Below, one piece after another: positions 1 through 39,266 of a stretch of DNA of 64,000 nucleotides (position 1 is its first letter; every line of letters begins with the position of its first letter). The notes beneath the pieces were generated by a model. That model worked only from the letters and a program-made list of their open reading frames with translations, had not been told where the DNA came from and searched no databases. The stretch spans positions 558,001-622,000 of the forward strand of contig NOWV01000016.1 in the NCBI GenBank assembly GCA_003344405.1. Direction: 5' to 3'. The stretch comes from Trichoplax sp. H2 (lineage: Eukaryota). The position numbers were made by a program, and so were the translations under genes.

Positions 1-175
1 CTAAACACATCTCTAGTGCTACGTTATCGTAACATGATAATTCGTATGTATAGGTAGGTGTTACGAAGCCTCTGAGTCATTTCATGTAAGACGATTCTAT
101 CAACCATGCTCTACCAATGTAGGCTAGATTATATTCCATTATTAAGATCGATCCTTCGATGACTATTCTACCTAC

Positions 176-3100
176 TTTCTATAAAATATCATTTAATAAA
201 AAATCAGTAACAATTAGTACTATCAAAACTAATAAAACAATAACTTTAAACGAGATTAGGGTGAAGTTCTAGTACCTGTATATAATAACTATCGAGGACT
301 TCTAAAAGTCCTCTTGAACTTATATACAGTATGACATAGTACACACTGTGATATGTAAATGTACATAATATGCAATGATGAAAACTGCCTAAATATCAAT
401 TTTTTACTTTAATGAACAAAAGCTTCAATAATCTACCACTGATAACGTATATTCTGTCAACGTCAATATAAGCTTACTTCCTAAAGAATTGCGTCCAATG
501 CCACCACGATTGCAATATTGCAATATTACGAAAATAAGAGCTCAAGATCAGTATACATTACTTAGGCCATAACATTGAAAATTGTAAATACAACAAATTT
601 ACTATTACGAACTTTGTACAACAATACAATCAAAGTGATTTTGTAGCTACAGAAGCTTCATTTTATATTGATTTGCCTTAATTATGTTAATTAAAAAAGA
701 CATAATGAATCTGAAGTATCTATTACACAAGATTACAGCATAGCTAGTCAGATATAGATTGACTGCTAATATCCTTTCAACCAGTCATCAAACTATAGTT
801 TTTGGCTATATAAATTATATAATATTTCGAAAGAATAACAGTAAATCATATAGTAATTAATTACTTACTTCCTAGAATTTCCAAAGGTGACGTTATTTAT
901 TAAAAGGGAATAAAAAAAGCATTCTGTTAGCTTGTATAGCAGTTAACGGATAAATCTTAAATAAGAATAGAATTACATATAATTTTGCAATCCTATCTAG
1001 ATTAAGTTTGCTTATTACAGTATGCTATGCATCATAAAACAATAAAAATAAATCATAAATTACAATATTTTACAAAAGAGGTATTAGACGTCTATTATAC
1101 AGTATTTAATCGTACAAGTACATTACAAGGTATCGCAGGAAGAAGTATAGAGGTTAATCAAATTGATGTTACGTATCCCATTGCAGATCTATTCTTTGTG
1201 AATTACTGCATTTCATCACATATCATATCCCATATCCGCATATTTATTCATAAATACACTATGCATACAGTATATCGTATTCACTTTCATAGATAAAATC
1301 TACTTACTTGCTGTTATGATTGCCCAAATTTAAAGGTAAGTAAACGGTTGATGTATAATTTATTGCAGAGACAGACACACAAAATAAAGTTAGGAATGTC
1401 AGTACAATACTTTTACATTAAATTATACCACATCCGTGAAAATCTTTGCCCAAAAAAATCAAATTTAGAATTCATTATAACTTACTCGCTAAATTTTCAT
1501 ATTCCATTAGTGATCAGAATTTCATAAAGGTAAAGGAAAGATAATAAAATCTTATCGTCAATATCAGTATTTATCAGCGATTGTACCACATAGTTTCAAG
1601 CGATTAACATAACACTATATTAACGATGATATCCACTTCAGGCGTTCAACTAGGCAACATATTACTTTCTACCAATGCAATAATACTACGGTAGATCCTT
1701 TATGACGTACTATTATTAAATATACAGTATAATATTGACTTAATAACAAATTTCAACAAGAAGATTCGTTAATCATTCGTGATATTAAATAATATCCAGA
1801 ATCACTTTATGTGCCCAGTGAAGTATTATCGCTCCACTTACAATATCGTATAAAGATTGTGACTGCAAGTCTAACCTAGTGATACTTAAACTTAAACATG
1901 TCGTTTAATGCTATGTATAAACTAAAGAGAAGTATGCTATAGATAGTCATCGTAGAGATGTAACGCAAAGCATTCACATGATCAACGATAGTACTTACGC
2001 ACTATTTCCCACAATCCAATGTTTCAATTTGCGAAATAAAAGTAAAACAGAAATTAGTTAAAAATTATATTAATTACTCAAGAACCTGTAACACTTTGAA
2101 GCTAATTAATTTAATTATAAGTCCTTCCTTTAGCACAAATACTGTAAACTTTCTATAATTATAATGTACTGTACTATATCCTGACCAAACTAATATAAAT
2201 GTACGTACATGCAATTTTTTAATGCTATATTAAATTATAGACTACTTGATATTAAGGCGTTGGACAATACTGATTGTTATGAAGGTAAAGCTTCGGCCTA
2301 GATCTTATGTACGTAATACTAGAATTTTTGCAGTAATATCTAGTTAATCAAGCAACTCGACGTGCCATCTTTGTAAGCCTAGACATGGCTAATCACTCTA
2401 CAATGGGTATATACTGGATGAAAATGACTACCTACAAGTAATGCCTTTTTAAAATATACTGTATTAAGAAGGGAGTTAAAATTAGCAGCACTAGGGTAAC
2501 TTTTTCCTATTGATATCTGCCTTATAAAGTTCAAAATAGCTATTAATAAGTCTATGTACTTACTTCCTGCATAGTTTGCATCAATAGGCGAGCATGACCG
2601 GTTACCAAAGAGGTAATATAAGGATTTACAATTAGATTTATAAATCTTAAGATCAATTAATCTAAGTACTCAACGTAAAATATCTGAACGCAATGTAACT
2701 AAATTTTAAATCTTGAAATAATATAATTTCTTAAAGCTAGTAGAGCAAATTTAAGTAACGGAAATGCACTGTAAACATTAAAATGAAACTAAACCCTCCT
2801 AAAAGAATATAGTACGGTATTAATTGTAAGCTAGTATTCATCGCGTTTTCTGCAGGTATTTATAATTTCATGTTTCGGAAAGCTTCATGTATGTATTTAC
2901 AGTATATTATAAATAAAAAAATTGTCTCATACTATTTTCGTATTTTTAACAGTTTTTTGACAAAAATTTGAAAATTTAGAATGCAATATAAAGATTTAGC
3001 AATACTAAACTTACGGTCTAAATTTTTTATTACGTATCCGAAGCCATTACAGTTGGGCGTCATTATAACGAAATATAATTAAAAGATAGAATTGATCAGT

Positions 3101-6100
3101 TTAAGTAGCATCGTCTCAAATAAATAGCCTTTTATTGAGCTAATGTCGAAGAATCTAGCGCTAGCTATGCCATATACAGCAAAAGGAAATTTCTATTGTC
3201 CTTTATAAACTAATGCTGTAATAAAAACATATTTATTTCCTTTCGTAATAAGTGATATTACTAAGCTGATTTTAAAGGCATTATGCCTACTTAATGAAAA
3301 TCTCTTATAATCCTCTAAATACGAGAAATGTATTTCTATTATGAGTCACTGGTAATTTGAAAGCTTCAGCAGCTTTTCACATTTAATCTCTATTATTAAA
3401 ATAATAATTTTAATAATCGTAGATCTAGTTTCTTTCGATTATAATTTGTGGGTTTTATATAATCATATAAAATTAATACAGTTCTGATTTTCTTCTATAT
3501 TCACAGGGAAGTGAGACATGTTTTGGGCACTATATAATTAACATTCGAACTTACTTGCTATAGGATTTCAATTTCATTGATATTAATCCGAAATAAAAGA
3601 GATGCCGAAGAGTAAAGTATACGAACAAAAATAACAAAAATTGATTAGAAAAATTTTAAATTTAAAAAGCACCAACGGAATATTATGTTCAGTATGTATA
3701 GTTGTTAGAAAGAAATGATAATTTCGATAATTATAGGCCTTTTTTGTATCTAATTTATGCTAAATGCATGATGCTTTTCAATTAATTGCGGTCAAAAAGA
3801 GAAATCTCCGAGAAGCATTAAACTTTCAGAGAGTTATAAAATATCAGATTAACTATAGCTGAAGAACGATATAGTACAACTAAAATTATATCAGAGTCCT
3901 AACTTTTGAACATTACGACAGTGTAATTTACGATCAAGCAACTAAATATCCGAAATTATTAATATAATAAAATGCCTTATAGGATGCTATTCTACAACTT
4001 TTTTTTATGGGAATTTTCAAGATTTTTTTACGTGAAATAATTCATACGTTACTTACCGACTGTAAAATCATTTTCAATTTCATGATTAGCCATCAGATAT
4101 TACAGTATCATAAAAAATTCAAAGATATCCAAAACTATTAGAGCTAATTTATCAGCATACAAGCAATTTTGTTGCATTTAATGTAGATAAATCAAACTAT
4201 ATAACCATAATGGAAATAAAGATAAGGATAGTACTGTAATCAGTAGCAGAATAATACAAGATTCTAGCCACTATATTCAGTAATTGATACTTACCAGCTA
4301 ATAAATATATAATTGTTGAAGGCACCAAGGTTAAATGAAAGAAAACATTACGCAAGGAATGGTTAGAAACAACAATAGGAAAAATTCTCAGAATTATTTT
4401 AATGAATTATCAAATACAACAAAATATTAGTTTGCGATAGTGCTACTTACAGTCTATTGCAATCACGGTTGTACAACGCAGTATAGCATGTTGACGAAAA
4501 ATAGACAATTAAAAACTAATCTACTTAAATAGCTTCCAAAAACTTTCATATAGGCCGAATATTAAATTACTAAACATAATTAACTATTTTACTTAAATCT
4601 CTTTCTACACAATACAGTATACAACGATTTGGTAAAGCTTAGATTAAAAAATCATCAGTTAATTTAAACAAGATGTTTCTTTTATAATAATGATATTAAA
4701 TTGATACTAATTACTGACCTCCTAATTTATTGCCATATCCGATCATAAGACATACAAGTGAACAAATTAGAACAGAAATAAAAAACGAATAGGTAAATTT
4801 TATCCTGAAACAGACTATATTAAATGCTCATCTACCATTTATCGCCGATAAGTAACAGAATTGCATTTAGCAGGCTATATCTTAAATAATAATCTACGCT
4901 TAATATGATCATAAACATCATAATAAAAATGCCGACTATCAGTATGATCTCTACGAAAGCAGGGTAGAGCAATATAATAAAAAGAAATAAATACTAACCG
5001 GCTATAAAGATCACAGAACCGTCCGAGATTCCATAAAACGAGATGTGATGAAAAGATAGATGCACATTTTCATTAGCTTCTGAGACGTTTAAATTTTTTT
5101 AAATATCAACGCAGAAAGATCTCTATAGGTACTATATTCCTTTTAAAATGTCCCACTCAAACTGTTATCAGTACATGAAACTGGAAACTACTACACCTTT
5201 AACCTAAGAATATTTACTTAAAATTTGAAAGATGTCAATATCAATCTGAAATTTTATGAAGCTTAAGTATGCGCAGATAATAATACAACTACTATCAGAT
5301 AGAACATTTTTTTCCACATTTTAAATATTATCCGTAAAATAACGTAATATTTCAAGGTTGATTTAAAGACATGCGAGCAGTTTCATGACCACTAATTAAT
5401 ATAGTGTAATTTACCGAACTATTGAAGTTTGAATCGTTAATAACCATAATTAGTATATACTTAATTATAAAACTAATATTTTACGGCATATTCAGATTGC
5501 AACGTAATTCGGATATCATTAATACTGTACTTACAGGCTATTGGTTGCCAGTACAGATCCAGTAGGTAAGTAAAGGATGAGAACATAGATAAAAGTCAGT
5601 TTCAATATAAGTACCGCTGTATATCGAAAACAATTTTGCATGACATATAGAGTATTTACTAGGTATTTCAACAACTATCTAAAGTTATATTAAATTGATA
5701 CTATCATAAAAATTAATTGCTAATAATTCAAATTTCTTACCGTCGATGAGTCCTGGCACTAATACTGTTTGAGTTGATAGCAAAGATCATAATGGAATCC
5801 AAGTATTAAACAGATATAATACAACTCACATTATAAAGAACAGCCTTTAATAAATCGATCTTATTCAATCTCTCAATCGACTTACAGTATATCTATCCTA
5901 TATCGTCAATAAGTAAAATTGTAAATAATTAGTAATAAGCTGAAAGCGCATATCCTCTTTAGTATACTGGGGATTAAGATAATTAAAAATATCAAAAAGA
6001 TTTCAGTTTAACTTACAAATCATCGATACTATGTTATGAACCAGAAAATTGTGAAGCAAGATCCGTAAAAGTTAGTATTTTCAGATTGAACGTAAAATCT

Positions 6101-9100
6101 CTGTATAAATTCCTAGGCTTACCTATCATCGATCCTAAAATAGATACAAAAGTAGTTAAGAATTAGTTAAGAATTGGTACTACAAAATATAAAATTTACG
6201 GCTAAGTTGCCGTAAAAATCAACGGGTCATTGCCAACAGGTGGTAACTACCCGTATTGGTATTACTAAAGAAATGTAATGAAAATGCAACGATAGTGATT
6301 TTAAAGTATTTTAAAATTTTCCTCTGTGGTTGTAAACTTAGTACTTGTTAAATACTCCGTATACTTTAGTTTATATGTTAAGATTGTACTTACTGATACT
6401 ATCAAAAGTACCTTAAATGTATATGCGCAGTTTGTAGCATTATAGGTTTACAGCTTACAATAAATAGCGATTTTAGCTCACTAAGATGTGAGCATGAATC
6501 ATAAACTTGTAGTAAACTTATAAATCATCTATTAGGCTAATATTTTATTTGTATCCATACTTACGGCATGGAAATCCTGTTGTGTTTGGTCGTTAAAAGA
6601 ATACACGAAAGCCAGTATTCATATTAGAAATTTTGCGTAATATCACTCGTAAATATATAACATCAACAACGAATATTCCGACTTACGGTAAGTCCAATCT
6701 ACGAAATAGTTATTTAGGGTGTAGAGGGAAGATGTAATAATCATAAGTTCGTTTCTAGTCATTGAAATCTATCAGGCCGTACAATATCGCATTAACTTAC
6801 GGAACTTCAACCCTAGTAACGATAACAGAAAGCGTACAATTATTTATTGTTGAAATGACCGTTATGTAATTGCAAAATTATTGCTTATACCAATCTGGTA
6901 CTATTTTAGCAATTACATACTTAAGGTAAAACGATTTAATGAATGTAACAAATAGTTTTACAGCTAAATATGCGATAATTATAAAATACAAATATTAGAC
7001 ATCCCTGAGCTGCTTAACTTATGAAAATGACTATGATAAATTATAAATATTTAGACATGAATTTAAATCTTAATGTGAAGTATTTCAATTCTGTGATGAC
7101 AACGTTATAGAAAGGTGCAATTATTTGGTATTCAGCCACAAATTATAATTTTTATAATAAAGCGCGATAAATTAACTACCACGTATTTTATATTAAAATA
7201 TTTCGTATACTAACGGTGCTTCGTCAATAAACATCTCGCTGATGTTTTCAGGAATCCAAAATAATCAGAAAGATATATAAGCCATTACATAAACTGAGAC
7301 CAGTAATCGCGGTATTAAGTTAATTTTCAACTTACGATAATTCCACTCTGCGAGATATTAATAATGAAGAACTAATTATTTGCAAACATAGCAGCTCGAT
7401 TCGTACTGAAAGTCATTGGAATGTTATTTCTTAACTTACGGTGCTCCGATCCTAATGACAATGTTAGAAATTTAGAGTTAATTTGTATATAGAAATAACC
7501 ATATAGCAGAGCAATCTTAAAAATATATCAATTCTATTACCACAGTATCTACATTTACAGGCTATATATAAGCTATAATAACGTGTAGAATATAAGATTT
7601 GGAATAACTTACGATGCTTGCAAACTAAACGCAGAGCAATTAGTACCACAAATTGCAGAAATAAGATGACATAATTTTCATTAGTAATCAAGTAGCTTTA
7701 ATTTCTTAGGTTTACTTTCAAATAATTGGCTTACTAGGCTGCGATCCTATCAGCAAAAACAACAAATAAATAATTACATTTGAAGAACTTGCAAATTTAC
7801 CTTACTTTAATTACTAACAAAGTCAAGTAGTTACTATTCCTTATTAAAAACTTACGCTTCATCCATCCTAATAGGTTAGACCAAAAAACGGAACCATTTT
7901 AAAAATGACACATACCATTAGTGAATACGATTATCTATTTCCTAGCTGTTATTGTCTTCTATTATTCCAAAAATACCAAGCACTACTTACGTTGTATTAA
8001 CCCTACCAGTACAACGTCGAAAAAATTCAATTACAACTTAGAACTACTCCGATCTTAGCAATATGCAATGAAGATAAAACAAATTTAAATCTTACGTCTC
8101 TTTCTCTCTGGAGTTCAATTAATAAGAATGGAAGAAATTGAAAAGTATTACCAATAAATTTTGTAAATGGAAACCCATTGATAAGGGGGCTACAGGTATA
8201 CGTAGATTCTATCTTAACTTACGTATTATTAACCCTAAATAAGCAATCAATTTAGAAGTCAATTTTTTTTGACTTGAGATCATAGAAGGCTTACAGCAGT
8301 TAGCAAACAGTTTAAACCTATAGCAGTTCAACTTACGGTGCTGTCGCTCTAAAATTGGGCGATTAAAGGAGCAAAAATAAGATTTAAAATAATGTTGAAG
8401 ATGTTACTAATCATTGCTTGCAAATAAGAGGAAGTCGGTCTATATTAATCATTAACTCACGGATCTTCAATCCTAAATATAATAACGATTTCCATTAATA
8501 AATTAAAAAATATCTTAATAAATCCTAAGATAGCTACGAATTGATAACATACCAGCTCAATGCAATAATAATAACTAAAATGTAAATCTCTTTGTAAAAT
8601 ATTCATTCTACGTTATTGATATCACTGTAGTCAGTCCATAAATGATTACAGAGCACTGTTGTATTCTCGTCTGTCTAGTGTCATACTGATATGTGGAAAA
8701 AATCTAGTAAGCACGAGACAAGATCACAAAAGTGAAAACTTACATGGTGCTGAGAAATTAGTATCCACGATGAATAGTATTCCAATTAGTGATAAGAATT
8801 AAAGGATAGCAGGTAGTATTAAAGCAGAGAAGACATAAATTAACTTCTAGGACAATTTAAGGTTATAATTTGGAATATATCCAACTGCAAATAGTTGTAG
8901 ATAAAGCGATCAAATTTGCTAACTAGAAATAATGACAAGCTAGTTTTTGCCTAGCCATGTAGTAACACTATTGTAATAATAATTGTAATAATAATCGATC
9001 TTAACATAAATAAAATTATGCAAGTAGTAATACCGTAATAGCTACGTTTAAGGAATTCCACATCATACTATTGCAACATAACTGAAGCAAAGCTAACAAG

Positions 9101-12100
9101 ACAGAAATACTATCTGAGAAATAGCAACTTACGAAGTTCCATTCCTTCATATTTTATTGTTTCGGGCATGAAGTCAAGAAATTGAGAATTAAATTAGTGA
9201 TCAAATTTCATTTTTACTACTACTGCATTTTCTAAAATAAAGCCACTATTTGCTATTAGATAGATCTTAGGGTCAGCTTAAACTGACATTTGAAATATAT
9301 CAAATATTTATTTAATTTGTAACCAATACGTTTAAATCTACTATTAGGTTTCTCCAGCCCAGCACTAATTGCAGCAGTTATTATAATTAAAAATTAGCTC
9401 ATAATAAAAGCCCTATCTAACAACTATTTCAGAACCGTCATTTCAAGTTTACAACCACAAATTGCCTAGCTAATTGCAATCATTATAGGTGCGAGAAAGC
9501 AAAAGCTATTTTATTCATAATTTAAAATTATAAATAATTAGAAATCTGCTACAGTATACAGCTTCATCAAACCTAGTGCTAAGAACTGATTCCAATATTG
9601 CATATCATCGTAAAGCAAAAGCTAATTATTTTTTATGTATGTTTCAAAATTGGTCACTTAAGATAATGGGTACAGCAGCATAGCTTTGACTTTTGAATTT
9701 TATGTCTATCAAAGTATCGCTTGTAACAAGAATACTAACTTTGATGTCTCCACTTCAAAGAAATGATGACTTCAAGGAAGAGACGCCAGCGGGAATGCAT
9801 CCAATTGTAGTATTGTGAAGGAATGAATTAATAACCAGAGTAATTTTGGCATATTTATAAAGATAATTATAATTGAAAGCAAATAATCTTTAAGATGAAC
9901 TAACGCTAATCAGAAAATAAAGGCAATAACAGGAAATAGACTAAGTTGTACTTGTTTAAATACACTTAATTGGAATCAGACTACTATACTCGTATGTGCA
10001 ATAATATTGAGAATTTGTCTTAACTTACGTCTTTTTCGTTCTAAAAATAAAAAATCAAAGAAATACGAGTACAATTAGTCTCAGTGATTAGAGGAAAATA
10101 TTTTTAGTACTTTTCCTCGAAATATTATAATTTCACTACATGAAAGCTTAGCAGCAGGTCAAAAATATTAGTAGTAGCAAGTCGGCATTAAAATTAGTTG
10201 TATACGCGGGACGGAGTAAGAAATAGTCTTGCTATTACGTCGACGGCATACGCGAATCGTAAAATTACATAAAGTAATTTTATCGTCGTGTGTCCTATCA
10301 TAAACTTTTAGAACTACATCGTTCTAGAGGGCCTTGGTCCTGATCATTTGCGTGGACAGTATTGTATACGTTATTACTGTATTTTATACTGCGATTTACC
10401 AATAATTATATAAGTACTGGTGATACTACTTCCCTTAATTAAGAAGGAGTTAGTATTATTAATACGCGGTTTTAAACTACGGATAATATTGGAATCATTC
10501 TACTAGACGATGGTAGGAACTAAACAGGAATAATCAGAGTTTTTTCTACTATACAGTCTACAATAAAGGATAAGATTAGTCCTTGAAATCCGATGGCTAT
10601 GGACGATCACTTACGTTGCATTTGCCCTAAAAAAGAAGCAAAAAAGATGATGTATTTTACTTTTACATCTTACCAATAGCACTATCACATTTTCAAGACG
10701 CTCAATCTTCATTCGATAATCAGCAGTAGTTTTTACTATTCAATTTTGAAAGTTTACTTTGTTGTAAGCTAACATTTAGTTTTAACTATAGCCATGAATA
10801 ACTTACGTATCTTCAATTCTATGCACCCATGTTACAGTACATTTTTGGAAGAAATGAAAAAAGTATTAGTAGTCCAGAATAATCACGGATAACTTCTAGT
10901 GAAGCAAATAGAATCATTGGACAGCTTACTCATCCAATTCGGAGCTAAATCAAAGAAAGAAAAGCAATTTTAATGATCATGATAGTGTTCCGCCATTACC
11001 CTCTTTGAGAAGATTTCTGCTGATTAATATCATATACGCTATTAACGCTATTAAATTACTGACTTACTCTGCGTCAATGTCGAGCCAATGACTACAAAAA
11101 GTGGCAAAGAAAGATAGACAAGTTATTCATTTTGAACATATAGACGAATGACCATAGATAAATTTTTGAAAGTTATTGCTATACAATATTGCTTATAAAT
11201 TCTACAATGAATTCATTTCAGCTTGAGTTCTAGTAAATAACGTGTAGACTGCATTTCAAAGACAGTTTTTGAAGGCCTACTGTGTAATATAGCATGAACT
11301 TGTCAATTTCAAAGAGTAAAATGAAATATGCAAAATATCAGTTATGAATATTTGCTTGTCGAGTGATTATCTTACATGAAGTATAATGTTTAGTCAAGGA
11401 TATTGAGCAAGATAGCAATGCGAATGACCATAGATAAATTTTTGAAAGTTATTGCTATACAATATTACTTATAAATTCTACAATGAATTCATTTCAGCTT
11501 GAGTTCTAGTGAATAACGTGTAGACTGCATTTCAAAGACAGTTTTTGAAGGCCTACTGTGTAATATAGCATGAGCACGTCAATTTCAAAGAGTAAAATGA
11601 AATATGCAAAATATCAGTTATGAATATTTGCTTGTCGAGTGATTATCTTACATGAAGTATAATGTAGCCAAGGATATTGAGCAAGATAGCAATACGGTAC
11701 GGAATTATTCATTAATTATTTAATTAGTGAATTTTTCGCCATATTGAATTGCCGCTAGAACTGACAGAGGTCAATTGGCTTTCAATTGGCTTGCTTATGT
11801 ATGGTACTGTACAAAGTAAACTGTTCGTGAGTAGTGAGCACGTGTTAACTAGACTTGACCCACGGAATAGACGTGTGGTAGCGAAGTGTCATGCACGAGT
11901 CACGACATCATTGGATTGACTTCTAAGACCGTAATTGTTTCAAAGCAAGTGGTGTCAACGTGTCAACTCTGTCACTCAAGGCATGACGCGACGAGAAAAA
12001 ACGCGGGATCATACCGGAATTGACAATCCACAGGGAAGAATAGTATAGAAACTATAGAAATTACAAAGTAGAAAAGCGAAATTCCATACAAACGTATTTG

Positions 12101-13164
12101 CGCCGTCTATCCGATATATAGAATCCCAATAACTTTTCTATGATGGCGCTCTATGCATTCAATGACGAACTGGAATTGTATCCATTTAAATGGATAGAAA
12201 AAATAAAAACATTCAATGCTATCCTTCTGCTAAAATTATCCTGTTGTCGCACCGTATTCGACAACGACTACAAAGTCTGTAGTCCATATCGTAAGAAAAG
12301 AAACTAGAATAAGTCCTGCCGCCCCAAGGTTACAGTAGAATAGGCTAAGGCGCTTTTTTATGGTGCCGCTAATATGATAACCGTTGTGCTCTAAAAGACT
12401 AAACTACTATTCATTTAAAGCAAACAGTAAAAATAATGTTATACAATTCTTCGGATAAGTTATCATGATGCTTTAAATTACCTTCGGTTTCCCCTAAATT
12501 ACACAGATAGAAGGAAAGAAACGGTCATTTGATTAATATACAATATAACGGCAAAGTGTGCACCCTATACGCGCACAAAATGGAGACAAATATTCTCATA
12601 TATCAAGATAGATAACTTACGATCGTTTGCTTTCGTATCATTAAAATTGGATGGAAAATCATTTCATGGATTCATTCATTACTAAGTCGAAATTGTATGA
12701 AATATTATTAAATTTTATTAACTATTACAACGAGTTTCCAGTGAATAATGTCCAAAAATTGACTTACTTTTTCATACGATTTCAAAGAGTTGAACCATCC
12801 GCCAAAGTCACATTGCGGAAAATAGCACAAAAGTAAGATTCACCATTCCGTCAATATAATTATTATAATAATGTCGGTTATGCGTGCGTATTTGCTGAAT
12901 ATGATTGCTAATAACCTACCTCAAGATACCCCTAGATAAAAAGATAGTGACAAAGTCAAAATTATCATTTTATTCCTGATTAAATTTTAAATTTAGAACA
13001 AGTCTATCGGTATTAAATTCTCTAACTCGGATTTAAAAAAAGTGCAATTGAATTCTTTCATCGAAAAGATAAAATGACAAATATAATTACATTTCAACTG
13101 GTGCCATGAAATGGCAGACAAGAGCGATCGTTAAACTGATCGTTATCAATTTCATCGATGTCAT
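176..13164 (-). CDS. Micro-exon gene encoding a putative secreted acidic/Thr-Pro-rich protein with a basic C-terminal segment (about 45 exons; 3' end beyond window start)
   Basis: Exon 1 (13164-13091) encodes MTSMKLITISLTIALVCHFMAPVE+AT followed by GTAAT. Plus-strand left coordinates of the AG-exon-GT units follow. 12 nt: 12920,12482,10807,10615,10029,9133,8461,8337,8223,8096,7991,7856,7735,7613,7440,7336,6801,6687,6565,6123,6017,5886,5741. 9 nt: 12621. 24 nt: 11068 and 7215. 15 nt: 10930. 6 nt: 8744. 3 nt: 5535,4999,4719,4451,4295,4057,3555,3015,2564,1999,1666,1486,1308,869,478,176. Joined translation: MTSMKLITISLTIALVCHFMAPVEMGILSKRSGNRSHWLDIDADSELDEIEDTANATTKKTNGTSTMIEDPATAPVNNTEKETVNTTMDEAIAAYLQASIGAPVELSEMFIDEAPVEVPLDLPISMPIDDSIDDLIDILTHRRLRRLCRKPNANDKKK... 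(no stop). The exon inventory is manual and may have omissions. Confidence 0.8.
11145..11693. repeat. Near-perfect direct tandem duplication, period 276 bp, in an intron of the micro-exon gene
   Basis: CGAATGACCATAGATAAATTTTTG...GCAAGATAGCAAT occurs at 11145 and again at 11421 with only a few differences. Confidence 0.95.
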
Positions 13165-16100
13165 CTTGATCGAAAGAACGTTAGAAAGTTTAATTTTTTG
13201 TGCTTCAGATATCAAATTCTTCACTCCTTCACCTAAGATGGCGCGACGAAATTTTTCAAACTCTGAAGAGAAAGGGATTAGGCTTAAATAGTATCTCAAT
13301 TTATAATAAAAATACCTCGATCGGTCCTAAATAGATGCCACTAATGAATGCATTGTCCTTTTAGTGATATTAAAGATTCTCAATTCGACCACCCGCTAGC
13401 TCATTCTAAATTGAATTAAATGTCAAGGGCTCCAAAGCATTCAAGCGAATACGACAGATACATTGAATATTCCTCTGATTATATTTCTATCACTAGATTA
13501 ATTAAGGATAATTCGTTTTAGCAACAGATTTGCCCTTACAATTCGATGAGTCTCTCATTCATTTTTTTATTTTAATCTCCAATTTAATATGATACCGGTA
13601 CTAATGCAAGCCGGTATGAAATAGATCTTAGACATGAAAACAGTTGCAATTTATCATTAATTTCCCTTATTAATCTTAATCCTAACTATTTAATCCAAAT
13701 ACACGAGACTTTTTTTCATATTTAAGATCCATCTTGCATTACCGGTAATTTATCCCACTCCAGATGTTCATAAACCATGACAGACTATATTGCAGTTACG
13801 GATAAGTGCAACCCATTATTCTCTAATTTTAGCCTTTTTTAAAAATACCTAATTATACGACGTATGTACAGGGATTATTTTTTACTAATAAATAGCATAA
13901 AATAGACAAAACATATGATTAACAATTCTAATCATAGAATCTATTTATACTCAATCGTAAATAAAGTATTTACCTACTTACGTTAGCAACGACCGTTACG
14001 CAATAAGAGTTCCGCTTAATTTTTGCCTTAATAAAAATTATCATACTTTTTTAGCCGTATTGCAATTTTATTAAAGGTTTCAGCTTATTTCGATAACGAT
14101 AATATTCGTACATTTTAAAACCGCACGAATAGTAGATATAAAATTTTGGTACAATACTGGTACAGCTCTTCTTTAAATATATCACAGTATCTCATAAATA
14201 TTATACATGGATATAGGGTACCATAGGCAAAGTTAGAATTATCCTTAACCACAGTGGAGTAAATAGCTGTAGAAACATGATAATCAAAGTATTTAAAGCT
14301 TCTTCCACACTACTGAGTGATAACTTCTAATACCCTAACCCTGAAATTAGACTTAACACAGTGTTTCACATATGTGTCTTTTGACCAATTACTGTACAGT
14401 GCTCGGTTAATGATGTGACTTTTATTGTAGAAAAAGTGCTATTTGAAAAGCAAATTATTTATGATATATAAAAAAATCGATTACGCATATCAACAGATTA
14501 GCCAAGATTTCCTGATTATGACGAAATTAATTTCATAATAATTTGTTACAGGTAATAAAAGGAACCAGATTCAATTTTTTGTGATACCTTCTCAGAATCT
14601 TGTAGCCCATCCATTGTTGCCAAATTGATGATGTAAGGCTAAATAAATGCTACCATGTTAACCTAATTAAAATATTAATTATTACTGAATGATGAAATGG
14701 CCATGTTCATATGTTACTAATAATTCAATTTATATCTTATGATTATCATCTCTTCAAATCGGTCAGGTACATGTTCTATTTATGTAAGCATGAACGTCAT
14801 GGAATAATTTCTTCAATTCAGCACCTGATAATCTGTCATACTATACATATTCCTACTCTAACAAAACAGGATTCTAAATTTAACGCATAGCTTCAATTCA
14901 GCTAGCTCTGAATTAAGTAATACCACTAACAACTACGATATCTTACCCTCATGCACTAAATCATATCTTTAATTAACTACCTAAGACACTATCCCAGTTT
15001 ATACTGACATTAATCTACAAATAGGTAGGAGTAGTGCTTTAATACATTGATCAAAATAGGATATCGGTAATTTGACAATCCATTAATTGTACAATACTAT
15101 AATAACAGTAATGAAAATCGACAGTAACCTCGTATACTAAGTATTAAAGCTTACGCCATCGTAAATGCTTCAAAATCACTTAAAATATTAGATCAAATTA
15201 GATAGAATGCTTATAAATTCACAGACGCTTTAGTTTCTTGTAGATACTCGTGTTGAAGCCAGATCTATCTTGCGTATTGAGTGTTCAACAGATAGGAAAT
15301 GTTTTTCAAAAAAGTGCTATACATTTTCATAGAAATAGAATATCCCTAGACCTATTAGATAGAACTCTTAAAAATTTAGCAAACGATTCCGTTTCTAATA
15401 TTGATACCAAATTCATCTTACTTATCAAGCTTCCGGTTAGGCAAAATATATTTAGAATGCTTATTGCCTTGTAGCTATATACACTTGGCATAAGAAATAC
15501 GAATAATAGACGTATATTGCGACAATGTCAAAAAGCAATAAATCTAAAAAGATTCTAACTTACAATTACTACAATCTATACGTTATTTAGCAAATACCCA
15601 TTAATTGTTGTATTCCTTTTTGTGGAGATCATTTATATTTTTCTTTCCAACCTACCGGCTACTCACAAACAATCTATTATAAGCTATATGAAATGAAACT
15701 GAGGAAACAGGTTCAATATACTGTACTGCACAGCAAGCATAAAGTATCGTACTGCAGTAGCATTATAAACTATGTAAATTTATTATACCTAAGAACTAGA
15801 TAGTAATACAATTATTCATATCATGATATTCATTCGATCATAAATGAGTTTACTTGTAGGTAGAAGAATTATTCTTACATGTTATATATCTTAAATTTTC
15901 CTATACAGGTATACGAGTATTTACTAACTTTGAAGACTCCTTCTGCTCTTAGGATCATGTGAAGATGAGATAAACTGCGTAGGCAATCGAGCTGTTTACT
16001 TTTAAGTAGAATCCTACAACCGTAGAAAAGACCATTTAGATTAATTACTCGTAATTTTATAATTTATCATAGGCAATAAACTATATCGTACTCTTCTCTT

Positions 16101-17492
16101 TAGACGCTAGGAAACTGGTTTAACTGATTAATTAGTGATTTATGAATTTACCGTGATGGTGTGTCCCAACTAAATGCCTATAAACTCATGGAAAACCACA
16201 TAACCCACTAAAAAAATTTAAACATAACTTTTTAAATCATTTAACTTTATCTGTATGCATCAAAAATAGAGGATAATTTAAGACTTCTGTTGAAAGAAGT
16301 TTACGCCATATAAAATTTTACAATCCAAATACGAGAATAATGGTATAATGGAATCATGCAGTGCAGTAATCTGTTTTACATTCATGTCATCATGATAACA
16401 TCCGCATTTATAGTAGCTCAAAGAATCAAGATGTTCATTATAAGTAAATTTAGATTATTTTAATAAATAAAACTAATCGCATACGACAAAAAAAAGATAA
16501 CTTCCACTGGGCATTACAATAATTATCAATAACATACGAATAAATAGTGCTACACATTATATGGGATCTTTACCCTTTTCAGTGAAATGAATGTTTTATC
16601 GTTTGCATAACCTTTAGCTAGTCAATAAGCTAATCGCACCTTAGTGCTATTGCTATCTTAAATTAATAATTATAGTAAAATTGTATTTTAGTATACGGAT
16701 AGATATTACTATTTTACACGTTGAGAAATCTATGAGAAGTAAGTAGTCTGCAATTTATTTTAATTTTCAGATATTGCTTTATAGTTTATATTGTTTTTCA
16801 GTATGAGACTACAAATAATATATAATATAGTCGTTAGCGATCATAGACTCCGCATCACGCTGATATTGCTGTATGTAAGGGTACATGTATATTGTATCAG
16901 TACATTAAAAATTATACAGTTTATCACGACAGGGATTCCCTTTCTGTATCCGTTGCCACAGCTGCATTGTAAACAATTTATAATGCAGCGATGCCAAAGA
17001 ATAGAAAAATAGAACCTTCACCGGGATAAACTGAATAATATACTGGTGTGGTATAGGGTTTTATTATTTTATTCTACACAAATATATCAGCAGGGTATGG
17101 GATTTATAATGGCTAACGTCTACATTAGTCATAGATTTACATTAAGAAAAAGTAACAAAATCTTAAATGTTGAAATACAAGTATAAGATCACGCTATCAA
17201 TACTGGTGTCGGTAAATGCTCGTATGTATAACTGTACAGCACTGTACAACAACATACAGTAGTAACATTATCATTTCATTACGACAACCTGTAATGCTCC
17301 ATCTCTAAGATTAATAAGAATAACTCTTGTTAGTTCAACGCTTTACGATTATATACATTGCTTCGATCGAATTAAGTTAAACAAGTTGGATTACTGTGGA
17401 AAGATTACTTATTACTCTGCAGTCAAAGATTAACACGTAATATAAAGTTTATGTGTAGGAAGATCGATACTTTTACAGAACAAGCTCCCAGT

Positions 17493-20400
17493 ATGTTATC
17501 ATGTCAACAATCTCTTCCTCATTTACCTGTACCACAGCTTCACGAAACATTGGCGAGATATTTACGTTCATTACAGACACTGATAGATGATAATGAATAC
17601 GAATCAAACAAACGAATCGTTCAAGAATTTGGCCGAGCTGGAGGTGTAGGAGAGAAATTAACAAGAATAATTCAAGAAAAAGCAAAAACACATGACAATT
17701 GGGTAAACATCGTATAATATATCGTGTGAAAAACACGTGTAGTTATGGTTTAAAACTGTCAATAAAGCATAGCGTGAACTAAACATTGTTGTTGTTTACA
17801 TTACCCCCAAAACATAACACTCAGCTTTCCTTCTCTAGCAATTTAAGTAAAATGTTAAGCCTATAACCGAAAAATTAGAGTAATGTAAAAACTGAGTAGT
17901 ATGCTATATCTATTAAACCCATTGATCAGCTACTTTCATGATACTCAATACTGTATCCCTCAAATATTTATTTTTATTTTATTTTAGTTGTACGATTGGT
18001 GGGAGCATAGTGTTTATTTGAATCAACGGAGTTCTGTTTGTCTGAACAATAGTCCAGCATTTCTATTCCCGAAACGCTCATTTCGAGATAGGGGCCAGCA
18101 AATTAAGTAAGTAAATGTATTAAAATAAATACAACCCATACGTAACTAGCCTTGACTAAATACATATATTCTTTATTTTATTTATAGTGTAATTAATATT
18201 CATACAGTATCGAATCGAACTTTAAATGTTGCATCAGTAGCTATAACTTCTTAATATGACACTAGTAAGAGTCTTGTACTTCATTGGATTTTCGTGAATA
18301 ACGAAGATCGATATACATAAAATTACTTGCTTTTATTCCAAATGATAGCCTTGATTTCTTCTTATACAGATTTGCCGCTAAGTTGATCATAAGTATCGTC
18401 GAATTTTATTACAAAATCAAAAGGTTAGTTCAATTTTTTGCTTAGAACTTATGATCGAGCTTGGATAGGACTAAGTAATTATTGAGATTCAATAAAAGGA
18501 GATGCCGCCATATTTGAGAAATATTGCAGCACTCTCGATTAAATCAACGACTAAAATAGTTATTAGTAAAAAGTAAATATTTGATAAGTTACATTAGACG
18601 AATCCTAGCAGTTGTCATGATAGAATCAACATACGCTATATAGTATCACTCAACTGAAACTGAGTTTAATAACTATGTTTGTACGATAATTATATTTAAT
18701 TACTAGCGGGGATCTACCTGTGGATAAAATTAGTAATCAGCCAGCATGTATGATGCAGTACAATAAACTATTCTATTCCTGTCGCATTCCGGGAAAAACT
18801 GTCGATAGTATTGCTCAATATTCTCCAGAATGTGGGCAGCCAGACTTTATCGCTATAGCACATAATAATCACGTAAGTACAAGCTACAAATAGTAATACT
18901 ATGACTTATGCCAAAGGTTACTACAGATTATTACTCTTTATCATATAATGTATAGCAATATTTATAATTCTTTTGGATAGTTTTTTGCGATCGAGGTAGC
19001 GAAAAACGATCAAATCTACAGTCGAGAGACGATTGAACAACAGCTTAGTTATATATTTCAAAAATCATCGAGGCCTGTACAGCCTATTGGTGTGCTAACA
19101 ACATCAGATCGAGATTCATGGTTCAAGTCTTATGAGCTATTGATGAAAGGTGAAAACACAGACATACGTATAACTAATAAAAACTGCTACTGTCATAGTA
19201 ATATACGATGTAATCCTGATGCTCGACTTCTATAATGCCACTCTATAGATGTATTCTAAATGTTAATTATACTTATTCCATAGATCAGACAAATGCTCAG
19301 TCAATTAAGAAGATTCAAAAATCGATGTTTATGTTATGTTTCGATCAAAATAATTCTGGTTTAAATACTGTACGATCGCATCTCTTCTTGGATGATGGAG
19401 ATGGTAGCCGCAATGCTTCATATGGACAAATGCTGCATGGAGGGGGTAGTACAAAAAATTCAGCCAATCGTTGGTTCGATAAGACCCTGCAGGTAAGTAT
19501 TTTCTTTAAAGTTAAATAGAATTAAATTCGCCCGTATTTTGGTATTAAACTATTCAATATTAATTTATAGTTTATAATAAACTCTAATGGCGATAATGGT
19601 TTAATTTATGAACATTCGGAATGCGATGGAGCGCCAGTCATGAATTTGGTCGATTACATGCTTTCCCGGTGGTAAATAGAATATGCAAGATATTCAGTAA
19701 ATGATAATCAATCACCATTTAATTATTTATTGAAGAATTGATGATAATTAAAAGCCTTTTTAAGATTTTCGTATTTGATTACGGTTATAATAAACAATGT
19801 GTATGTTATTTAATAATAAGTACTGAGTCTTATTGCTTTATATTCTAGTGATAATATGACTAAAAATGAATATAAAGACACCGGTAGTAATAATGTCGCT
19901 GTAAAAGATTTAAATTTCAATATAAGCAGTAATATCATCGGGCCTATCAAGGGTTCTATTCTGAAGATTGATAAGTACGTTGTATTTGTAGAGATGTATC
20001 GCTGAATATGGAAAGTTTAAGAGCTCATGAATTATATGCTTTACTACTATTTTATTTAGACTGATTACCAACTTGAATTTGCGATCAATTAATTTTAAAG
20101 ATTTTGGCGAAAACTTTATAACATCGCAATCTTTGAGTCCTGATAGTTTCTTTCAAATAGCAATGCAAATAGCATTCTACAGGTGAGACTTTCATCTGCC
20201 TAAATTACAATCCATTATAGAAATTAGCAATAGCAAAGTATCGTATAAAGGAATACTTCATCTGTAATATAATATTAATGCTTTCCAATGTGCATTAGAA
20301 TTCATAATCGGATAGCCTGTGCACACCAAATTGCATCAACTAGGCTATATCTTCTTGGTCGAACTGAAACTATACGCCCTAGTACACTGGAAGCTAAGGC

Positions 20401-29090: not shown

Positions 29091-30529
29091 ATGTGTACCA
29101 AGATACAAAAAATGATGATGAAATTGCATCAAATGAAGAAATCTGAGTTTGGGCTAGCAAATAAAGTAAAATGGGATCAATAATAATTAATTAATCAGAT
29201 CATTTGCAACAGGGTACAACACTCTCTCATTCATCAGTCATATTGGAACATTTTTAGCGAGACTGTATAGAGTCATGAACTCGATGCCCGTGATATAGTG
29301 AAAGTGTGAAAGACAGATTGTTGTCACGAGGTGATAGAGTACGAAAACGGCATATATGGACAGAATATTGGGAGTGATTTTACTCTATCCAAGCCTTGGG
29401 ATATGATGATGACGATAGAGAAGTTTGCCCTACGAGAGATTACTAACTATAAAGAAATACACTAACTCTACCCTCTGTATACGTGCATTATTGTTATCCA
29501 ATTTTTTGTTGCTTTTTCCACTGTAGAGGCAGATGGAGTAATGCAGTTGGAAAAGTTTTATTCACTTTATTGCACTGTGAGTGCAAAGGGGGATAGCATG
29601 GACAACTGCATCTGGCATCGTTAAGGCATTCTTGTAATAAACCAGATGTGCTTAGCGGCGATAGTGACCAACTAATCGTCAAAGGCATGTCTACTCGTAG
29701 TAGCCCATTCTATTAATACACCTTAAGCTCCAATACTTCCCTCAAGTTACTCCATCAATTTTGAAATACATCTACAATTACAATAGTGCAACGAATGGGA
29801 TAGGATGTGTTATCATCCAAGTATAAAATCCAGTCCATTGGCTAAATGCCTAGTCAATTTGCAAAATGCCATACATCTTGTATTATTAACCGATGGCAAT
29901 GTTTTAATGCTAATGTTAAGTGTAGCAGTAAATGTCATAATCAGAGAGCTTGTAAAAATAAANNNNNNNNNNNNNNNNNNNNATGTGTACCAAGATACAA
30001 AAAATGATGATGAAATGGCATCAAATGAAGAAATCTGAGTTTGGGCTAGCAAATAAAGTAAAATGGGATCAATAATAAGTAATTAATCAGATCATTTGCA
30101 ACAGGGTACAACACTCTCTCATTCATCAGTCATATTGGAACATTTTTAGCGAGACTGTATAGAGTCATGAACTCGATGCCCGTGATATAGTGAAAGTGTG
30201 AAAGATAGATTGTTGTCACAAGGTGATAGAGTACGAAAACGGCATATATGGACCGAATATTGGGAGTGATCCCATTCTATTTATACACCTTAAGCTCCAA
30301 TACTTCCCTCAAGTTGCTCCATCAATTTTGAAATACATCTACAATTACAATAGTGCAATGAATGGGATAGGATGTGTTATCATCCAAGTATAAAATCCAG
30401 TCCATTGGCTAAATGCCTAGTCAATTTGCAAAATGCCATACATCTTGCATTATTAACCGATAGCAATGTTTTAATGCTAATGTTAAGTGTAGCATTAAAT
30501 GTCATAATCAGAGAGCTTGTAAAAATAAA
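29091..30529. repeat. Duplicated sequence flanking a 20-N assembly gap (29963-29982)
   Basis: 29091-29378 matches 29983-30270 and 29704-29962 matches 30271-30529. The segment 29379-29703 is absent from the second copy. Confidence 0.9.
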
Positions 30530-30532: not shown

Positions 30533-32481
30533 TAATTTTCATAATCAGAATATTATCAATTCAATAATAACTACTTCGATTATAATAGTATCTCTAAATG
30601 TTTGGCAATTACTTCAGTAATTGCAAGTTACCTATGTATTGATTATTTGAATTAATCTATTATAATTAAAATCATCCAAGAAATAGAGATTTTCTGGGTT
30701 TTTTATTTAGTAATATTACTGCATGAAGAAAGATAATTTCTCTGATTTATAAAGAAAGACGAATTTACTGATGGACGTGTTTTGCTATTTTTGCAGTTTG
30801 CGAACTGACTATAGCACTGTAGGTAAATCTACGCTTACAGTAACCCTAATCATCTTACTGCATTCATTCATTCATTCAATGTGGACATGATAACTGTAGA
30901 TTACAGTAGTTGTAGATCTCTTGTAAGAATCTAAGACCACTTTTACAATAACGAAGTAGAAAAATTAAGGTCGTAAAGTACTTGTCCGGATGCTAGTCGT
31001 GATTCTATAGTATGCGCAAACCGTACTGGTACGGACTACGAGTAGATATAGCACAGTAGAAGGAATGAACGATATAGTAGCAGTAATTCAAACTTGCTTG
31101 AAGCAGAGATATTCAGTGTATTATTGTATAGGAACTGCATGTAATTTACTTTTCCATGGTTATACGGTATGTTGATATTTACTTTTACATCAATGAGCGA
31201 TTTTCTGATAGTATTTCTCTTATAATAGACGTCAAAAAAAGGCTTTAAAAACAACTTCGAAAAAATGAATTAATTGGAAGCTTTGTCAGCTTTCCTTCTA
31301 GCAGTCTGTAGAATCAACCTGAATGTCCGATGCGCATGCACAAGCCAAATTACCATGGTTTCCTTTCAACGCTATCTAATAACGTAAAGTTAAACGGAAA
31401 TTGCTGCAAGCTCTTATGATTATCAAATCGATTCAATTATCCATACAAGTATTCTAGGGTAGAAAATCACTGTAATTCATAATAATATACATGACTTCGT
31501 ATACTGGAAATCAAAAACATACTACTAGGCTAAATTGACTCTTGATACAGTAATCTTTTGCATCAAGCGATACTTGGATGAATTTGTACTGCGGTGGAGT
31601 TATAGTCGATAAGATGCACTTTAATACGTACATATAGGAAGGATAGTTATTCAATTCTTAACTGTACATGTATATCAAATTAGACAGTGGTACGCAATTT
31701 TTTTCAATATCTTATATGCGTAGATGCAGGCTTTCACTTCTTTTCCTCTACGTTATGATCCGACAAACGTCGGTAGTCGGTAGTTAGGTTATTTAGCGTT
31801 CACTTGGACTCGATGATTGGTTTGCAGCAGATTGGCCATACTCACCTTTTCTCCACTGCCACAATAATACAATAATTATTTTACTCTAATCGATTAGCAA
31901 AGAGTAATCAATTGCTCAGTAAATTAAAAAGTGATGCAAATATCACTACATTGATTGGCAATCTCAAATAGGCAATTATACGCTTATGCCGGTACTTTCA
32001 GCAGCTGTTAGAAAATCAAAGGTAAATACTAATTTATTATAGATATTTATTAAGTAACTAATTGTATCTGCTTCTTTCAGACGACAAAGGCTTTAACAAA
32101 TTCTATAATATCGTTATTGATTTCAGTAATAGTCTCTATTATTCATTTTTAAGATACTTGTAATCTAAAACCTAATTTAATCCAGACATTGTAGTAATCA
32201 TAAATATCAGTAAAGTATTAATACATCACAACCGACTGTGAACAAGAATAACAATTGAGTTATATCCTTTACACAACGCTTAAATCTATCCATACGGATT
32301 TTACAGGTTTAAATTTTTAAAATTCGCCGTAAAGTTATCGTTCTAGTCAGTACTTTCTAAGTGTCAAGTTTTATATTAGACTACAGTTAAGTTTTCTATG
32401 ATTCGTTGTTTATTACGATATAAAATGAAAAGAAATTAATTGTGCCATGGTGACAAAATAGCTTATGTATTTTCATTACAG

Positions 32482-38400: not shown

Positions 38401-39266
38401 CACGAACATCGTTCAAAACTAGCTCAGGGACTGTTAAGCTTGCCAAGAGGTAACCACGCCGCTGTTATCAACTTGAATACATTTAGAAGTCTTACAACGT
38501 ATTGTGAATTAACTATATTTGTTACATAGTTGTAGAAAGATGTATCTAAGCATTTCTACTTTTGCATATCAATTGTAGTTTAATAGAGTAAGCAGGCTAC
38601 ATGTATGATTACTCGTGAGCGGACATGATTTACATAATACTAGTTAGCAATACATTCACACAATACACCCACAATCCACTAGATGCTGGATATTAAACTT
38701 TCGCAGTTTAACATACACCTATTATAAAAGGATGTCATAACAATTTACAGTAACTGCTACAATATATACTGTATATACAATGCGTAAACGGAATGTATTC
38801 CTTTATGATTGAAAAAAAACAAATTAATATTTCTAGGGTAGAGTCTGTGTTAGAGCAGTGTACGATACGCAGATTATATATTTGTGCCTATACGTGAATA
38901 AAATATTTTTTTGAGGATCTTCTTTTATACCCCTATAGAATGGATGCCTTGAATACAGGATTCTCACATTATGCAATCGATGCTGATGAATGGCATCAAA
39001 AGCAAGTTGGAAAGCAGGGTATCAGCAGTGCTGCGGCAAGCAATGATCTCTCATTACCTGCTGAAGGTGTGGTTAAGGTTAAATCCGGTAGTTCACCTTC
39101 TTGTCCACGAATACCAATTAATTATAAGCCAGCCATGACGTCCACGACAATCTTGCAACAACGACATCGAGGTCATCAGGCTTATAATGAGCAGCTGAAG
39201 GACGTTGCTGATCATAAAGACTATACAATTGATCAAATGTATCACATGTCAGAGAACGAATTGTAG
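32482..39266 (+). CDS. TPR-repeat + CHAT-domain protein, TTC28-like (5' end unresolved)
   Basis: The 3255-nt exon 32792-36046 encodes TPR repeats (AHANLGSIY, AYGSIGVAYSKMGNYSLALAYCEQQL) and CHAT motifs (LYAKLISPIE, VAGNP, ATKERVL, HLSTLG, IVLSSC, GACSVLVPLWPI, WGSYVLLG). Further exons run to the stop at 39266. Confidence 0.75.

Follow-up and report, generated by a model that had tools for sequence, protein, structure and literature searches.

A probable micro-exon gene in Trichoplax sp. H2 with long successions of twelve- and three-nucleotide exons

Structure of the locus

The DNA analysed here, referred to as the window, is a stretch of 64,000 nucleotides (nt) from the placozoan Trichoplax sp. 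H2 (positions 558,001 to 622,000 of the forward strand of contig NOWV01000016.1, NCBI GenBank assembly GCA_003344405.1). Its minus strand carries a gene composed almost entirely of micro-exons, and the part of this gene that lies in the window has 45 exons: 23 of 12 nt, 15 of 3 nt, two of 24 nt, one each of 30, 15, 9 and 6 nt, and a first exon that contributes 74 coding nt. Exons of 30 nt or less make up 44 of the 45, and 429 of the 503 coding nt are found in them. All of the introns are in phase 2, and each exon after the first (3-30 nt) has a length divisible by three. When the exons are joined by their coordinates they form an open frame of 167 codons which begins with an ATG at 13164. The 44 micro-exons are consecutive, an order that RNA confirms, through letters or joints, over most of the 12-nt part, and the gene extends on the minus strand beyond the start of the window. 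Taken together, the evidence presented below makes it probable that one highly expressed placozoan micro-exon gene (MEG) contains all 23 twelve-nt exons as true coding exons.

The presence of 23 twelve-nt exons between 5741 and 12931 had been proposed in a first-pass annotation of this DNA, and all of them were found, on the minus strand, with AG/GT borders and joined in RNA. The corresponding motifs are strongly confined by strand and position: AG-N12-GT[AG]AG occurs 26 times on the minus strand of the window and not once on the plus strand, and 21 of the 26 occurrences fall within 5741-10818. With both strands counted, AG-N12-GTAAG was found 24 times, as compared to 6.23±2.23 (maximum 13) in 100 dinucleotide-preserving shuffles.

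Transcription of the micro-exons

Three bulk RNA runs from one study (X4, X5 and X7, organism label B) were compared as contigs, not as reads. Runs X1-X3 (label A) hold more than 80% of the stretch including the introns, and X1 was used as the comparison. The contigs of X4, X5, X7 and X1 were aligned to positions 1-18000 of the window. X1 was DNA-like, with a depth of ~50-80 in all 30 bins except for one peak of 125 at a repeat, and contained no splice joints. Contigs of X4, X5 and X7 with depths of 270-503 join the micro-exons in genomic order wherever their letters are visible, and every listed splice-type joint at an exon border reads CT..AC on the plus strand and therefore GT..AG on the minus strand.

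Exon 1 (13091..13275) contains the 5' untranslated region and the first 74 coding nt, ends in phase 2 at the donor GTAATT, and is covered by RNA at 13090-13275 to a depth of 270 in X4 and 408 in X7. In the contigs of these two runs it is linked to 11068-11093 by 30 letters, which between 11093 and 13090 match exactly the 12-nt exon at 12920..12931 (donor GTAGGT), the 9-nt exon at 12621..12629 and the 12-nt exon at 12482..12493 (donor GTAATT). The high-depth contigs align to the 24-nt exon at 11068..11091, which has splice sites, and have a joint on either side of it; these contigs continue to 9740-9769 and to 7215-7238. As a 431-nt X7 contig exceeds its visible parts by 15 nt between 9769 and 11068, a 15-nt exon was identified at 10930..10944, which is in frame and bordered by AG/GTAAGC. 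Three 12-nt exons, 10807..10818, 10615..10626 and 10029..10040, were read without gaps in the X5 loose end at 9769, where the high-depth contigs align to the 30-nt exon 9740..9769 (donor GTTAGT) itself. In X7, the loose end at 9739 likewise reads gaplessly through the 12-nt exons 9133..9144 and 8461..8472 (donor GTGAGT), and the six letters between 8461 and 9133 correspond to a 6-nt exon at 8744..8749 with one synonymous difference from the window.

Direct joints were found in an X4 contig of depth 20, and connect 8337..8348 with 8223..8234 (8233/8336), 8096..8107 with 7991..8002 (8001/8095), 7856..7867 with 7735..7746 (7745/7855), 7613..7624 with 7440..7451 (7450/7612, which is also present in X5), 6565..6576 with 6123..6134 (6133/6564) and 6017..6028 with 5886..5897 (5896/6016). 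In addition, the X7 loose end at 7855 reads exons 7613, 7735 and 7856 in succession without a gap. The 24-nt exon at 7215..7238 (donor GTTAGT) is an aligned piece of high-depth contigs in X4 and X5, and in both runs the loose ends at 7214 read the exons 6801..6812, 6687..6698 and 6565..6576 gaplessly. The twelve-nt exon nearest to the window start, 5741..5752, has a contig edge at 5741 and its letters are present in the X4 loose end at 5617. In all, 22 of the 23 twelve-nt exons have RNA backing, in the form of a junction, a contig that ends at the exon boundary, or exon letters read within a spliced contig; the exception is 7336..7347, which was placed by its splice sites and reading frame. 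Where letters are visible, the twelve-nt exons behave as constitutive in the major mRNA.

A second pattern of transcription was seen on the minus strand from 11636 to 12847, at depths of 21-75 in all three RNA runs, and was unbroken through 11636-12492. This transcript is spliced to the alternative exons 12621-12681 and 12768-12847, the first of which is a 61-nt form of the 9-nt exon that occurs in lower-depth contigs (joints 12492 to 12620 and 12681 to 12768 in X4, X5 and X7). An X4/X7 contig then joins 10594-10596 on the opposite strand. It may be an alternative transcript or a nested element, or the strains may differ in structure here. The 1390-nt intron here contains a 276-nt tandem duplication at 11145-11696, with 98% identity between the copies, at which the depth of X1 is 125 versus ~70.

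Contigs at 13576 (depth 145-164) and at 7701 (~30) leave the window and run on into 255 letters that are absent from it. They may derive from elsewhere in the genome, either from paralogues or from dispersed repeats, and were left out of the evidence for the gene. A twelve-mer at 13540-13551 resembles exon 5741. No RNA cover was seen in X4, X5 and X7 at, for example, 13801-17400.

Spliced-leader trans-splicing was also considered, as the same 10-11 non-genomic letters stand before 2471 and 9357 on the plus strand in RNA contigs of two runs. It was rejected because neither position is preceded by AG, the string has no copy in the window, and the literature yielded only unrelated work; the extra letters are probably a library artefact.

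The chain of three-nucleotide exons

The 12-nt part of the gene is followed by a chain of about 15 three-nt exons on the minus strand (176..5537), which is in phase 2, in frame and free of stops, with introns of 153-562 nt. The exons start at 5535, 4999, 4719, 4451, 4295, 4057, 3555, 3015, 2564, 1999, 1486, 1308, 869, 478 and 176. The motif AG-N3-GTAAGT occurs 12 times in the window versus 2.28±1.55 times in shuffled sequence, and 11 of the 12 are on the minus strand within 863-5539; together with four sites that have slightly weaker donors, these 11 make up the 15-exon chain. Contig edges coincide with predicted borders at 3016, 3557, 4295, 4998, 1486 and 178. Three RNA letters are present between 3557 and 4295, two of which are identical to exon 4057-4059, and the RNA joint from 178 to 1486 holds 21 letters, in which exon 478 is present together with extended versions of exons 1308 and 869. 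Exons 4719 (donor GTCAGT), 4451, 2564 and 1999 were placed by splice sites and frame.

The longer forms come from an X5 contig in which exon 869 is 12 nt (869-880) and exon 1308 is 6 nt (1308-1313), in both cases with letters that are contiguous in the window. In the window they are preceded by GG and AA respectively, and not by AG. As each of these dinucleotides is one base change away from AG, the label-B strain is suspected to have longer exons at these two places. We suspect that the window strain would instead use the next in-frame AG, with the result that exons 869 and 1308 shrink to 3 nt.

An alternative to the start of the chain was seen in one low-depth X4 contig (11.3), which joins exon 5741 to an acceptor at 5616 and thereby reaches an in-frame stop after 27 codons. 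The coding chain is favoured over this form because all 15 small exons are multiples of three. Exon 5741 also has a 24-nt form in this contig (5741-5764, minus strand), which uses an acceptor 12 nt upstream. The 28 loose letters of the contig include two differences from the window at exon positions, both of which are A-to-G on the transcribed strand. If anything, the three-nt chain is a more surprising part of the locus than the twelve-nt exons.

The predicted product

Exon 1 encodes 24 hydrophobic residues after the ATG, a leader that resembles a signal peptide when read from the translation. In the model without the 15-nt exon, 124 residues follow the leader and contain 24 D+E versus 9 K+R, five N-x-S/T sites and several dibasic sites. 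The product would thus be a secreted, acidic and probably disordered protein with a run of four-residue modules as its core. The contiguous 40-residue translation of exon 1 had no match at E≤10 among longer proteins, which is weak evidence, and a scan of 1-18000 against Rfam identified no RNA family.

Exon ends and exon skipping

The first-pass annotation had treated the twelve-nt exons as interchangeable modules. Under this explanation they are cassettes whose skipping, made safe by ends in four-fold-degenerate codon prefixes, generates protein variants as has been proposed for schistosome MEGs. Several features of the locus are in keeping with this. All exons are symmetric and share one phase, so that any skip keeps the frame, and the architecture is like that of flatworm MEGs for which exon skipping is reported in the available parts of PMC4015677 and PMC7653826. 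High-depth contigs break inside exon 5886 (X4 and X5) and inside exon 7613 (X7), and a break of this kind may indicate that the assembly graph branches there; one contig, as described above, uses alternative acceptors.

The end dinucleotides were exactly as had been annotated, with AC (6), CC (6), TC (3), GC, CT and CG accounting for 18 of the 23 exons; the remainder are AG (3), TT, and the TA of exon 7735, the sole twelve-nt exon with that end. An excess over codon-usage expectation, for which the annotation had proposed a test, was also found, with 18/23 compared to 35.5% in a neighbouring open reading frame (ORF; p=3.5e-5), 34.7% in the internal codons of the gene itself (p=2.5e-5) and a flat 50% (p=0.005), although these binomial p-values are overstated if the exons are duplicates, since they are then not independent.

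The consequences of skipping were assessed for the 378 possible junctions that the 29 internal exons between exon 12920 and exon 5741, both included, can form, with a null in which the ends were taken from ordinary codon prefixes. Eight junctions make a stop, all from the TA end of exon 7735, and 76 change the junction residue. The null means are 20 stops and 101 changed residues, and 28% and 15% of null sets, respectively, are equal or better. Skipping would keep the frame, as the annotation had it, since the exons are symmetric and in phase 2, but the additional safety attributed to the end bias lies within the null. Skip-safety is no better than the null chiefly because a purine is already the first base of 21 of the 23 exons.

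A different cause of the end bias is suggested by the splice sites. The first base is G in 15 of the 23 twelve-nt exons, and NCG accounts for 10 of the 18 junction codons with an NC prefix, as compared to 6-17% in the neighbouring ORF. Fifteen of the 23 twelve-nt modules have P, T or S as their junction residue. The G-rich exon starts and NCG codons speak against a skipping device, and we infer that the NC ends reflect a preference for P, T or S at module position 1 together with room for a G that is favoured at the acceptor.

The RNA also argues against cassettes. No cassette skipping was present in the 15 listed joints (of 20) or in the visible contig letters of X4, X5 and X7, and the dominant mRNA has its exons consecutively, in strict genomic order, wherever letters are visible; the idea of diversification by skipping of interchangeable modules was accordingly not upheld, although contigs lose rare variants and minor skipped isoforms may exist. 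Trichoplax is free-living, and so the immune-evasion rationale put forward for schistosomes does not carry over to it. On balance, interchangeable cassettes are an unlikely explanation of the twelve-nt exons.

Similarity and origin of the twelve-nucleotide exons

The 23 twelve-mers are more alike than would be expected by chance. Their mean pairwise distance is 7.4, versus 8.8 for random sequences of the same composition and 8.5 for intronic ones, and none of 2000 random sets of either kind were as alike. Among the 253 pairs, three have two mismatches or fewer (0.4 expected from a column shuffle, p=0.007) and seven have three or fewer (2.4 expected, p=0.016), and these include the pairs that had been grouped into families in the first-pass annotation. 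At the protein level the modules share a tetrapeptide profile, with [P/T/S] in 15/23, [I/V/L/M] in 15/23 and [D/E/N] in 13/23, followed by a variable residue. The start-to-start spacing of 104-173 bp that had been given for the ten exons between 7336 and 8472 was correct.

The introns, in agreement with the earlier description, have no mutual similarity: local alignment of 19 short intron cores gave a mean score of 11.15 versus 10.87 after shuffling. Five repeat families were examined in 5600-13300, of which only D2 and D3 link different introns, and both consist of exons with their own splice sites. The others are D1 and D4, which are the 276-nt tandem duplication within one intron, and D5, a 28-nt match with two copies.

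The shared exon profile, the excess of close pairs and the unrelated introns favour the old serial duplication that had been suggested. By sequence comparison, the twelve-nt exons would be diverged copies of one exon-plus-intron unit, and the duplication would be old because the introns have lost all similarity. In such a process a unit of exon plus intron would have been duplicated serially, with selection retaining the exons and splice sites while the introns drifted.

A second origin that may be envisaged is a single ancestral exon with a tandem tetrapeptide repeat, into which introns were later gained recurrently at a repeated proto-splice site. This would account for introns that have no common sequence, exons that have a common 12-nt profile, and the single codon phase of every intron. 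Dozens of independent gains in one gene are, however, a less economical assumption than duplication with later drift of the introns, the similar short introns (92-161 nt for the ten neighbours) fit copies of a unit equally well, and no introner-like repeat was found in 5600-13300, which makes recurrent intron gain very unlikely. That the locus merely contains chance or non-coding splice-like motifs or an assembly artefact, with no translated gene, is scarcely credible: exon 1 found no protein homologue and the Rfam scan no family, but the motif enrichment is strong and specific to strand and place, a 167-codon frame with an ATG and a hydrophobic leader stays open over 45 exons, and precise GT..AG joints occur at high depth in three RNA runs and not in the DNA-like run.

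Recognition of the exons and order of intron removal

The donor GTAAGT is used by 16 of the 23 twelve-nt exons and by 11 of the 15 three-nt exons, as compared to none of eight donors in the neighbouring TTC28-like gene (boundaries from tblastn). The first 16 kb of the window contain 35 of its 49 minus-strand GTAAGT. Introns in the twelve-nt part have a median length of 123 nt. The exons may be recognised by intron definition, with the help of these short introns and of donors near the U1 consensus GTAAGT.

In an X4 contig of 1729 nt (depth 20; 5741-8477), which may reflect stepwise splicing, 6 of 17 consecutive introns are absent. No two of the removed introns are adjacent, and from 8472 to 7440 removed and retained introns alternate strictly. 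The exon after a removed intron begins with G in all six cases, as compared to 4 of 11 for the retained introns (Fisher p=0.017). In the vertebrate mini-exon literature it is argued that splicing factors at both flanks of a tiny exon are sterically crowded. Alternating intron removal is what would be expected if a 12-nt exon can be engaged at only one flank at a time, and adjacent introns would then be removed one after another and not at the same time.

The assembly itself has a bearing on this pattern. The index word of the Logan runs has 31 letters and was taken, by assumption, to be the assembly word too. Three joined twelve-nt exons (36 nt) are longer than this word, and would consequently merge with the path of the mature mRNA.

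Several points weigh against the interpretation of the locus as a gene of constitutive exons that arose by duplication and are spliced stepwise. The assembler may favour an alternating pattern, the alternation comes from one contig of one run, and the non-adjacency of 6 of 17 introns has a chance probability of p=0.075. Contigs drop rare isoforms and give no inclusion levels, so that "constitutive" refers to the dominant form only. Most of the mature contigs were read by 30 letters per loose end, and what lies between in 7238-9739 is recorded as not known. The RNA runs are labelled as a different organism from the DNA-like run and are ~0-2% off the window, and splicing may differ by strain. 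The low-depth contig with acceptors at 5764 and 5616 means that some alternative splicing does occur, and leaves the coding 3' end unsettled. Finally, what is said of the age of the duplication, of conservation and of function is drawn from this one locus.

Comparison with known micro-exon systems

An operational definition of MEGs, in which a micro-exon is an exon of less than 70 nt with a length divisible by three, is given in the available part of PMC7653826. Every clause of that definition, as it stands there, holds for this locus, which has 44 exons of 3, 6, 9, 12, 15, 24 or 30 nt.

The features of flatworm MEGs were taken from the available portions of PMC4015677, PMC7653826, PMC4350168 and bioRxiv 10.1101/2023.06.21.545858. 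As in the MEGs of Schistosoma mansoni, Echinococcus multilocularis and Hymenolepis microstoma, most of the coding sequence here is carried by tiny symmetric exons. Flatworm MEGs are described in part of PMC4015677 as having a 5' signal peptide and a small secreted product, to which the signal-peptide-like leader (by translation) and the inferred secreted product correspond here. The introns in both cases far exceed the exons in length, and both kinds of gene are, on the sections available, difficult for gene finders and RNA sequencing aligners.

There are also clear differences. According to the accessible text of PMC4350168, MEGs "appear to be restricted to platyhelminths", whereas the host here is a free-living placozoan. 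For S. mansoni, the available part of bioRxiv 10.1101/2023.06.21.545858 gives 10-20 exons per MEG, mostly of 15 bp and within a range of 6-81 bp (3-81 bp in its abstract); the exons here are instead uniform in size, with 23 of exactly 12 nt followed by ~15 of exactly 3 nt. Flatworm MEGs have reported skipping, and none was seen here in the contigs. The resemblance to flatworm MEGs is thus one of architecture, and is probably convergent.

Isolated constitutive micro-exons of 1-15 nt, often unannotated, are described from plants and animals in the available parts of PMC8831610 and PMC4674806. In common with these, exons of 3-12 nt appear here to be spliced accurately by the ordinary GT-AG spliceosome. 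Isolated ultra-short micro-exons occur singly or in small clusters in conserved domains, whereas about 44 follow each other here and account for almost all of the coding sequence.

Neural micro-exons of bilaterians form a third comparison. These are regulated, switch-like cassettes in neuronal genes, and depend on a splicing factor domain that is bilaterian. The exons of this locus share with them, as far as the partial sources extend, the size range (3-27 nt in the neural, SRRM3/4-regulated class), the preservation of frame and the steric crowding of splice sites. The difference is that here the exons are included in the dominant mRNA, the animal has no neurons, and the donors are near-consensus.

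In a search of the full-text literature, outside subscription journals and supplements, no paper was found to describe a nuclear micro-exon gene for placozoans, and the search returned only a paper on a mitochondrial cox1 micro-exon and unrelated work. Until now, the MEG layout has been regarded as particular to flatworms and as linked to parasitism and immune evasion. A clear MEG in a free-living, early-branching animal would show that this layout can originate independently and without the need for an immune-evasion rationale. Correctly spliced runs of 12-nt and 3-nt exons at high expression would test the lower size limit of exon recognition, and the locus would offer a natural system in which to study intron definition and the order of intron removal. 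Standard gene finders and aligners do not detect genes of this kind, which are therefore probably missing from placozoan secretomes and cell atlases.

A broader picture can be offered tentatively, and as a whole it is more doubtful than the existence of the gene. Placozoans may have evolved MEGs independently and in a more extreme form, with obligatory stepwise splicing in which pairs of exons are ligated first, since the two sides of such a tiny exon could not be occupied together. Where acceptors have shifted between strains, exons of 12 and 6 nt would be reduced to 3 nt, and a variable family of secreted peptides would result from alternative acceptors or from skipping now and then.

Neighbouring sequence

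The window is placozoan nuclear DNA with a G+C content of ~30%. An exon on the plus strand at 17376-17717, judged by its translation, may encode the N-terminus of a carnitine/choline acyltransferase. An assembly gap is marked by 20 N at 29963-29982. Beyond it is the TTC28-like gene with TPR and CHAT domains (31065-39263, plus strand), which includes an exon of 3.4 kb. The ORF at 32737-36150 (1137 codons), which served as the neighbouring reference ORF in the comparisons of codon usage, is 99% identical to a named protein of Trichoplax adhaerens.

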